Shown one piece after another: positions 59,918-61,681 of a stretch of DNA of 64,000 nt. Position 1 is the first letter of the stretch, and each line of letters starts with the position of its first letter. The stretch covers positions 974 through 64,973 of the forward strand of contig JAIXZE010000093.1 of assembly GCA_027489875.1 (NCBI GenBank), read 5' to 3'. Under the pieces are notes generated by a model. The model worked only from the letters and a program-made list of their open reading frames with translations. It had not been told where the DNA came from and made no database searches. A program made the translations under genes and the position numbers. Origin of the DNA: Verrucomicrobiales bacterium. Its GTDB lineage: Bacteria > Verrucomicrobiota > Verrucomicrobiia > Limisphaerales > UBA9464.

Positions 59918-61681
59918 TCATCGGTGCGGTGTTGGAGCTCCTGCGGGACCCGAGACGGCGATTTCAGCCCTGATTTCTCGGATTGGGCGGCCGGCGTTAG
60001 TCCAGCCGATCGAGGAAGTTTGCGCTAATTCCTCGATTCGGTTTCCCCGAAGCACCGTGATCCGATCCTCTGGCATAGGTCTGCCGTATCGACCGTCCTC
60101 TGCCGATGTGCAAAAGGTCAACTTGTGCTTCGGAGCTCTTAAGGGGACATGGACCAGCACCTCAATGATCGCGTTCTCGACGTCAAAGCGCTGTTCCAAG
60201 TTGAAGTTCAGTTTCGAGAAGTATTCCAAGGTCTTGGGAGCTTTATCCGTGATGATCTCGGTGTATTCCCCGGCGCCGACTTGCAGCGGAGTCAGATAGT
60301 TGACGAGGACTCCGCGGTGCTCCGGTTTGGCCGGGTTCCGGAGCGGGAGCACCGTGTGCCCGACGGGTGCTCCATCACCGGCGGTCACCAGTACGGTAGT
60401 CTGGGAGAAGTGCTCATTGGAACTGCCAACTTCGAAGAAGGTGGAACTGGCATAGATCGGGGCCGAAACGGCGGCGAAGCGGCAGCGGACCGTTTCGACG
60501 CATGGTAGTTTTGGATCCAGGAGAGCCCAAGCGATGATCTCGTAGCGAAACTCGATGAGCCTGATCGATGTACTGGAATGGTGCCGCAGGTAGGACTTGA
60601 AGACGGTTTCCATGACAACTTGGAGCCGATGATCGGGTTCGGTCCAGTAGCTTGGATTGAGGTTGGTGTTGGCGCGCTGAGTCATACGCAACCGCTCGCG
60701 CGCTGTGAGCGCGTGGACGAATTTGGACGTCTGCTGTTTCAGGCTGCGATACTCGGTGCCGGAATTCTTGTCTCCCTCGGTTCCGACGTAGTCCTTGGAG
60801 AAGGCCTTGCTGAAGTCAAAGGTCTTCAGGCTGGTTTCCAAGCAGAGCACCAGATTGGGGTCTCCCAGCGCGGCTCGGGCGCGGATTACGGAGTCATCAA
60901 TGGGGGCGAGGAGAAGCCCCTTGGCGAACTGGAGGGCGCTTCGCGGAGCCTCCTTGAATTCCTGCTCAAAGGAGATGGCGAAGGTGACGAGTCGTTGGTT
61001 GGGCGGCAGTTGAAGGGAGGATTCGAAGGTGTCGCGGTCTTGAAGGAGGCACTGGACCGGAAGGTTGTTGCAGAGGCCGCCATCAACGAAGACCTCGCCG
61101 GAGCCAGTCCAGTTCCGGAACAGGAACGGTAGGCCGGCTGAGTCCAGCAGTGCCTGGGCGATGGGAGAGGCCTTTTCCCTTATCTCATGACGCGCGGCGC
61201 CAAGGACCGTGGTGACGACGGAAACCGGCAGGTTGAGTTTTGCGAAACTCAGTTGCCCGAATTCCTGGTAGAGCCATTTCTGCAGTTCACGGTCCCGCCA
61301 GAGGGGACGCCCTGCGAACCAGAAGCGCAGGGCGCGGTACGGGATTGCGTAGAGTGGGCAGCGAAATTCCTTGGCCAGCTTGCGTCCTCGTTCGCCAGCC
61401 AGCTGGTCCTTGAGTCCCCGCAGGAAGGATTCGAGGTCCTCCAGACGGTTCGCTCGGGGGCGATCCGGGTCCGCCTTTGGATCCGTCATTCCCCGCGCGT
61501 AGAACGCGGCCGCGAGGGCACCGGCAGAAGTCCCAGCCATGCGATGGATGCGGATCAACCCGTGTCTCTCCAGATCACAGAGAGCTTCCAAGGCCGCGAT
61601 GAGGGCCATCAATTTGGCTCCTCCACCTTGAATTGCGATCTGTACGGGGACTGGCTCGGGACTTATGTCTAGGTTCTCCAT
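59918..61681 (-). CDS. patatin-like phospholipase with an unassigned ~330-aa C-terminal domain
   Basis: The oxyanion motif is 'IQGGGAKL', the nucleophile elbow is 'GTSAG' and the catalytic Asp is in 'FVDGGLCNNLP'. Residues ~260-587 have no recognisable motif. Confidence 0.85.
   Translation of the reverse strand: MENLDISPEPVPVQIAIQGGGAKLMALIAALEALCDLERHGLIRIHRMAGTSAGALAAAFYARGMTDPKADPDRPRANRLEDLESFLRGLKDQLAGERGRKLAKEFRCPLYAIPYRALRFWFAGRPLWRDRELQKWLYQEFGQLSFAKLNLPVSVVTTVLGAARHEIREKASPIAQALLDSAGLPFLFRNWTGSGEVFVDGGLCNNLPVQCLLQDRDTFESSLQLPPNQRLVTFAISFEQEFKEAPRSALQFAKGLLLAPIDDSVIRARAALGDPNLVLCLETSLKTFDFSKAFSKDYVGTEGDKNSGTEYRSLKQQTSKFVHALTARERLRMTQRANTNLNPSYWTEPDHRLQVVMETVFKSYLRHHSSTSIRLIEFRYEIIAWALLDPKLPCVETVRCRFAAVSAPIYASSTFFEVGSSNEHFSQTTVLVTAGDGAPVGHTVLPLRNPAKPEHRGVLVNYLTPLQVGAGEYTEIITDKAPKTLEYFSKLNFNLEQRFDVENAIIEVLVHVPLRAPKHKLTFCTSAEDGRYGRPMPEDRITVLRGNRIEELAQTSSIGWTNAGRPIREIRAEIAVSGPAGAPTPHR

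Follow-up and report, generated by a model that had tools for sequence, protein, structure and literature searches.

The window, as we call the whole 64,000-nucleotide stretch of contig JAIXZE010000093.1 analysed here, carries a type 2 bacteriophage exclusion (BREX-2) locus in which a gene for a patatin-like protein with an additional C-terminal domain (CTD) lies between the core genes pglW and pglX. This patatin-CTD gene occupies positions 59918-61681 of the minus strand, stop codon included, and encodes 587 amino acids (aa) from an ATG start. The preliminary description of this DNA had given the same positions and had named no strand; translation of the plus strand over these positions runs into many stops, and the open reading frame (ORF) of 587 codons is on the minus strand. 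Ahead of the gene, pglW is present with its C-terminal half and runs off the end of the window (61722-64000, minus strand; PADLOC PglW, E = 2e-184 for the ORF at 61722-63881). Behind it follows pglX, which encodes the BREX-2 methyltransferase (55991-59815, minus strand; PADLOC PglX, E = 0; Pfam Eco57I and DUF7008), and the remaining core genes pglY, pglZ, brxD and brxHI lie at 36663-46745 on the same strand (PADLOC BrxC-PglY, E = 0; PglZ, 4e-229; BrxD, 5e-194; BrxHI, 2e-281). As read from the sequence, the gaps measure 40 nt from the pglW stop to the patatin ATG (61682-61721, minus strand) and 102 nt from the patatin stop to the pglX ATG (59816-59917, minus strand), exactly as first described. 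A scan for the sigma-70 consensus, which may not suit this host, found no promoter-like site in the 40-nt gap, and no terminator-like site was found in the 40-nt gap or, on the minus strand, in the 102-nt gap. Since the genes share a strand, are separated by short gaps and have no terminator between them, co-transcription of the patatin gene with pglW and pglX is likely, in agreement with its earlier placement inside the BREX-2 transcription context.

The N-terminal head of the protein matches the patatin profile of Pfam (PF01734) over residues 16-210 (61052-61636, minus strand), with E = 1.9e-20 and a score of 74.3 bits against a cutoff of 27.7. It holds the complete catalytic set recognised in the preliminary description, and all three motifs proved to be invariant across 14 family members. 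These are the oxyanion-hole loop GGGAKL at residues 19-24 (61610-61627, minus strand; QGGGAKL, residues 18-24, in context), where G19-G21 and A22 do not vary; the nucleophile elbow GTSAG at residues 50-54 (61520-61534, minus strand), with Ser52 as the predicted catalytic serine; and DGG at residues 200-202 (61076-61084, minus strand), where Asp200 is the predicted catalytic aspartate within an invariant V199-D200-G201-G202. With a glycine-rich loop, a G-x-S-x-G and D-G-G dyad, a profile score above the cutoff and an alpha/beta fold, the protein is a genuine member of the patatin family. When the whole model was searched with Foldseek, 330-400 columns aligned to CapV (8zr9), PlpD, plant patatin and CapE (9ioq) at E ~1e-11, so the patatin fold reaches far past the Pfam core. 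No transmembrane or hydrophobic segment and no signal peptide were found in the patatin-CTD protein. We predict from these features a soluble, cytoplasmic protein of two modules, the first of which would be a catalytically competent phospholipase A with a Ser52/Asp200 dyad.

The public product (P0001, 563 aa) begins at Met25, and the annotated start differs from ours by the stretch that includes the oxyanion loop (61610-61681, minus strand). A start at Met25 would delete strand 1 and the oxyanion loop. Because the homologues in the alignment all keep the sequence IQxAIQGGGAK upstream of Met25, we take Met1 to be the true start. The Shine-Dalgarno-like sequence GGTGGAGGAG ahead of Met25 is made up of the glycine codons of the conserved GGGAK motif, and it was probably GGTGGAGGAG that misled the gene caller into the Met25 start.

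The C-terminal module and its alternative heads

The second part of the protein is a conserved module at about residues 338-578 (59948-60670, minus strand), which starts with helices and continues as a beta-sandwich of about 13 strands. In the full-length AlphaFold model, built on a 14-sequence alignment (pLDDT 80.7, pTM 0.62), the alpha/beta patatin fold extends to about residue 300 and is followed by long helices at 309-339 and 351-368 and by an all-beta domain at 373-576. An AF2 model of residues 320-587 alone, built on a 38-sequence alignment, reached pLDDT 86.4 and pTM 0.84. The preliminary description had spoken of some 330 unassigned, mostly strand-like residues. Unassigned and rich in strands they are, with two helices preceding the all-beta portion, but the size shrinks to about 250 aa because the patatin fold reaches to about residue 340 and the conserved module begins only near residue 338.

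No Pfam family matched the module even at E<=1 when 38 members were scanned, and a profile search of the PDB returned no sequence relatives. Among PDB and BFVD structures, the best Foldseek match was the N-terminal beta-sandwich domain of M1 aminopeptidases (E ~1e-6), and this loose fold match is the sole outcome of the structure search proposed in the preliminary description. The likeness to the N-domains of IRAP, ERAP1, APN and LTA4H covers about 240 aligned columns, but with a TM score of ~0.4, a root-mean-square deviation of 6-8 Å and 8-14% identity, and the module has neither an attached peptidase domain nor a sequence signal. The resemblance is one of common topology and not evidence of homology or function. 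The Pfam, PDB profile and Foldseek searches also led us to reject SAVED, CARF, SLOG and C2 as identities for the module.

A word-indexed homology search retrieved 14 relatives of the patatin-CTD protein, all of 509-590 aa and all likewise built of two parts; the nearest of them shares 46% identity over the full length. The family proved larger when a profile of the C-terminal module was run with HMMER against 1.84 billion representative sequences (clusters at 50% identity), where at least 445 clusters matched at E<=1e-3, 325 at E<=1e-10 and 171 at E<=1e-30. Among the matches listed of at least 480 aa, 103 of 112 have a patatin head. Eight of the nine others match Pfam Metallophos, the calcineurin-like phosphoesterases (one of them weakly), and the ninth matches SIR2_2, its head being most similar to FAM118B and the NADase ThsA of Thoeris. 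In all nine, the match to the C-terminal profile spans almost the whole of its length, so that a constant module is found with alternative heads. By analogy with immune proteins, a non-catalytic module kept constant beside interchangeable NADase, lipase and phosphoesterase heads follows a sensor-effector pattern, and this lends the strongest, albeit indirect, support to the suggestion of the preliminary description that the C-terminal domain may be the sensor, although the fold itself offers no positive evidence of sensing. The family is sparse but broad, with a patchy distribution, and public sources label its members only generically as RssA or NTE-family proteins.

The pglW-pglX junction as a cargo site

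To place the gene in its BREX context, 30 PglX homologues were aligned and 80 BREX-2 loci were taken from species-representative genomes with 10-kb flanks. A tblastn search found no patatin-CTD homologue in any of the 80 loci; the recurrence of patatin genes between pglW and pglX elsewhere, raised in the preliminary description, was not borne out. The closest relatives of the window locus are L175 and L176, whose PglX, PglW and PglY proteins are 67%, 73% and 75% identical to those of the window (the PglW of L175 aligns, at 73% identity, up to position 63998). In one of the two, pglW lies 22 nt from pglX, and in the other an unrelated 168-aa ORF separates them. Both carry an AAA_21 and RloB pair and a KAP gene as cargo downstream of pglX, and both are without the patatin gene and without the CHAT gene of the window (described below). 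We have accordingly rejected the possibility that the patatin-CTD protein is a BREX core component, given its absence from the 80 loci and from the closest relatives.

The junction itself takes up cargo repeatedly. Where the contig includes both pglW and pglX, as it does for 62 loci, the two genes abut or overlap in about 42 (estimated gap -102 to +72 nt), and 435-8407 bp are inserted between them in the other 20. The inserts, which encode mostly nucleases and OLD-type ATPases, include genes for PIN_12 proteins, OLD-type ABC ATPases (some of them with a partner), AAA_21 with RloB, YhcG PD-(D/E)XK nuclease and Uma2, helicase-PLD and Schlafen/AlbA_2 proteins, the same repertoire as the "auxiliary and backup nuclease effectors" of BREX (PMC12839542). 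For example, the junction of L073 holds a 1,147-aa AAA_11/AAA_12 helicase fused to a PLD nuclease (900-4343), that of L015 a Schlafen(AlbA_2)-HATPase_c_4 protein (5925-7829) and that of L016 a PIN_12 protein (8858-9949), and a pair of the AAA_21 and RloB type fills the junction of L090.

The patatin gene is also set apart by its base composition. With a GC content of 0.594 and a GC content at third codon positions of 0.707, it lies below pglW (0.709 and 0.846), pglX (0.665 and 0.839) and pglY (0.661 and 0.834), which bears out the lower GC relative to its neighbours observed at the outset. Its flanks show no direct or inverted repeats of note. On the strength of its lower GC relative to the core genes and its absence from L175 and L176, we read the gene as a recent, lineage-specific and horizontally acquired cargo insertion at this recurrent hot spot.

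In its position between core genes, its strand, the variability of the junction and its lower GC, the gene resembles the BREX accessory effectors, such as GmrSD/BrxU, PARIS-like OLD-ABC with TOPRIM, and Schlafen proteins (PMC12839542). It differs from them in its predicted activity, as those of that survey and of our junctions are all nucleases or ATPase-nuclease pairs, and the survey (PMC12839542) has no mention of patatin or lipase. The gene fits the description of BREX-embedded accessory cargo, with a lipase in place of the nuclease.

At the loci surveyed outside the window, the family and BREX do not meet. None of PglW, PglX, PglY, PglZ, BrxD and BrxHI is encoded at any of 80 metagenome loci with family members, and none of seven annotated family contexts, including that of the 46%-identical closest homologue, contains BREX genes.

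Family neighbourhoods and candidate functions

Across 70 family loci no neighbouring or partner gene is conserved, and the protein appears to have no obligatory partner. In about seven loci of one subclade, a helical protein of ~115 aa is encoded directly upstream on the same strand (L008, 9592-9948; L125, L128, L136, L145, L147 and L150); these proteins are 30-46% identical between loci, have no counterpart in the window and may represent a partner or regulator. Defence genes occur near some family members. For instance, the Hydrogenophaga homologue lies downstream of a type I restriction-modification system, GmrSD and an NYN protein, the Methylobacterium homologue lies beside TIR and Tle1-like genes, and the 130 neighbour ORFs of 19 metagenome loci include strong matches to PD-Lambda-4, PDC-M41A/B, PDC-M30B and DNA methyltransferases. 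The preliminary description had made its reading depend on an association with BREX or defence islands elsewhere; the first is lacking at the loci surveyed, and recognisable defence neighbours are seen at a minority of loci. A role in defence is nevertheless plausible because of the head swapping, the capture of the gene at a site for defence cargo, the patchy distribution with no synteny and the defence neighbourhoods of some members.

Our preferred interpretation, which we put at about an even chance, is that the patatin-CTD protein is autonomous sensor-effector cargo, a suicide-type defence protein that works outside BREX. Since no partner gene is conserved, the protein would act alone. The C-terminal module would keep the lipase silent until an infection cue, for example a phage protein or an altered cell state, is met; the head would then become active, either because autoinhibition is lifted or because oligomerisation is induced. 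An analogy for the oligomerisation step may be seen in the ligand-induced filaments of CapV and CapE recorded in PDB entry titles. The active lipase would then hydrolyse membrane phospholipids, and the infected cell would die before phage release, providing an abortive-infection layer beside BREX and independent of it.

It should be noted that several observations weigh against this interpretation. Of the approximately 26 loci whose flanks could be used, most resemble housekeeping regions, with clear defence neighbours in a minority, and these counts come without a background control. PADLOC gave no convincing match for the protein, its best being a CBASS (cyclic-oligonucleotide-based antiphage signalling system) phospholipase model at E=6e-4. 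The fold of the module is a generic beta-sandwich that gives no positive pointer to ligand or protein sensing, and the full-length pTM of 0.62 leaves the interdomain geometry moderately confident. Finally, no description of the module family or of patatin genes in BREX loci was found in the literature, and phage and plasmid collections yielded no family member, only generic patatin-domain matches.

Known systems offer partial parallels. The CBASS effectors CapV and CapE share the patatin fold, the Ser-Asp dyad and the glycine-rich loop, provide the best structural matches and presumably have a similar output, that is, membrane phospholipid hydrolysis and abortive infection. They are, however, proteins of ~310-345 aa that lack a C-terminal beta-sandwich and are switched on by the cyclic nucleotide product of a neighbouring CD-NTase, whereas the patatin-CTD protein has an extra 250-aa module and no cyclase nearby. 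The preliminary description had likewise noted the missing activator, and indeed no cyclase or other activator was found among the window neighbours, and no cyclase in the annotated homologue contexts. A CapV-type CBASS effector was rejected as an identity, with the NCBIfam CBASS_lipase model scoring 17.6 bits against a cutoff of 200 and no CD-NTase present. The sirtuins DSR1 and DSR2 and ThsA are alike in being single proteins in which an enzymatic killing head is joined to a non-catalytic module, and the likeness extends to head swapping in that the module family includes a ThsA-type SIR2 head, but the C-terminal module has no relation in sequence or fold to DSR2 helical repeats, SLOG, SAVED or STAND. 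The protein fits this single-protein sensor-effector logic with swappable heads, with a module that neither Pfam nor PADLOC contains.

Other explanations of the gene must be weighed against these data. A regulated cytoplasmic lipase or esterase with a role in lipid remodelling or stress response may simply have landed in a permissive intergenic site, which we consider rather unlikely. Such a gene would suit the housekeeping appearance of most family neighbourhoods, the lack of a PADLOC match and the generic RssA or NTE-family names of the relatives, but the insertion site otherwise gathers defence cargo, and the family shows no conserved synteny and a patchy distribution. The occurrence of the same module on SIR2 (ThsA/FAM118B-like) and phosphoesterase heads is also hard to square with lipid-specific housekeeping. 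The preliminary description had raised, as one of two possibilities, a closer tie to the locus, with the lipase gated by the PglW kinase or the BREX machinery as a back-up arm; on this reading the lipase would fire when BREX is inhibited. The position of the gene between pglW and pglX, the shared strand, the short distances of 40 and 102 nt and the lack of a terminator speak for such an arrangement, and suicidal back-up effectors inside BREX loci have been proposed (PMC12839542). Against it stand the lack of a homologue in the 80 BREX-2 loci and in the nearest BREX-2 relatives, and the lack of BREX proteins at the 80 metagenome loci, in the annotated contexts and at the locus of the 46%-identical homologue. 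As the architecture is kept outside BREX, the family cannot depend mechanistically on PglW, and we regard gating by BREX as improbable.

An equally doubtful alternative is an orphan effector, whose module would bind a second messenger, nucleotide or otherwise, supplied by a cyclase whose gene lies elsewhere, in the manner of CBASS or Thoeris acting in trans. Patatin, SIR2 and phosphoesterase heads make up the set found on SAVED, SLOG and CARF sensors, and the patatin head has its closest structural matches in CapV and CapE; against this, neither the window nor the annotated family contexts contain a cyclase, the CBASS_lipase score falls far below its cutoff, and the all-beta sandwich has no similarity in sequence or fold to SAVED, CARF, SLOG or STING. 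That the protein is a toxin, secreted or directed at other bacteria, for instance as effector cargo of a secretion system, seems very improbable, even with Tle1-like (DUF2235) genes near two homologues, one VipB neighbour and weak matches to the patatin toxins ExoU and VipD. The protein lacks a signal peptide and any secretion-associated domain, the family loci showed no conserved immunity, VgrG or PAAR gene next to the family gene, and its enzymatic head is N-terminal, whereas polymorphic toxins carry theirs C-terminally.

If the autonomous defence interpretation is extended to the whole family, the module would be a previously unrecognised single-protein anti-phage sensor family that drives patatin, ThsA-type SIR2 and calcineurin-like phosphoesterase heads, and the window would provide the first lipase-type abortive-infection cargo in a BREX-2 locus, found at a junction where nuclease back-ups are the usual insertions. 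We offer this broader proposal tentatively, as falling somewhat short of an even chance. Should the family be a defence system, it would add a new sensor domain, absent from Pfam and PADLOC, with hundreds of diverged members found mostly in soil bacteria, and its natural head swaps would make sensing and killing separable by experiment. BREX cargo hot spots would then be seen to take up membrane-targeting effectors besides nucleases. In terms of BREX biology, proximity to pglW cannot be taken here as a sign of kinase gating.

Other cargo and features of the window

A large CHAT-domain protein is encoded directly after pglX (52684-56208, minus strand; Pfam CHAT over residues 913-1172, E = 3.4e-33) and represents a second lineage-specific cargo, absent from L175 and L176. 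Its listed GTG start overlaps pglX by 218 nt, and the true start is probably the ATG at 56022 or the GTG at 55971, giving a protein of ~1,100-1,170 aa whose N-terminal region of ~900 aa has no Pfam, NCBIfam or PADLOC match. A functional link between the patatin and CHAT proteins was considered and rejected, as no CHAT homologue adjoins any family member.

Further along the cargo block lies a KAP-family NTPase gene (49008-51533, plus strand; Pfam KAP_NTPase), which is divided by an in-frame TAG at 50310-50312 into two ORFs of the same frame (49008-50312 and 50322-51533). A single high-scoring segment pair (53% identity) carries the alignment with the intact 771-aa KAP protein of L175 past the TAG, and the split gene could be a pseudogene, a sequencing error or a case of read-through. 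Beside it, an ORF of 280 aa (51623-52465, plus strand) has no Pfam, NCBIfam or PADLOC match, as is also true of a 697-aa ORF that directly follows brxHI at the locus boundary (34148-36241, minus strand). Between the cargo block and pglY, an AAA_21 ATPase and RloB pair identified with Pfam (46983-48955, minus strand; OLD-ABC/AbiL-like) shares 68% and 59% identity with its counterpart in L175 and L176, where the order relative to KAP differs.

Within pglX, the middle third (~57415-58615, minus strand) has a GC content of 0.58-0.63, compared with 0.66-0.72 elsewhere in the gene. This low-GC stretch coincides with a poorly conserved part of the 30-sequence PglX alignment and may be an exchanged target-recognition region. 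A tyrosine integrase gene just upstream of pglW in L175 (200-1261) suggests mobility of the BREX-2 island as a whole; the corresponding region of the genome studied here falls outside the window.

PglX finds its best matches in Verrucomicrobiota metagenome-assembled genomes (50-55% identity, GTDB representatives) and in named proteins of Opitutales and Chthoniobacter. Genes in the left part of the window specify a DUF7133-HEAT-cytochrome c protein and FG-GAP proteins, which are typical of the Verrucomicrobiota and the Planctomycetes-Verrucomicrobia-Chlamydiae (PVC) lineage. The DNA probably comes from the Verrucomicrobiota or from a related PVC lineage.

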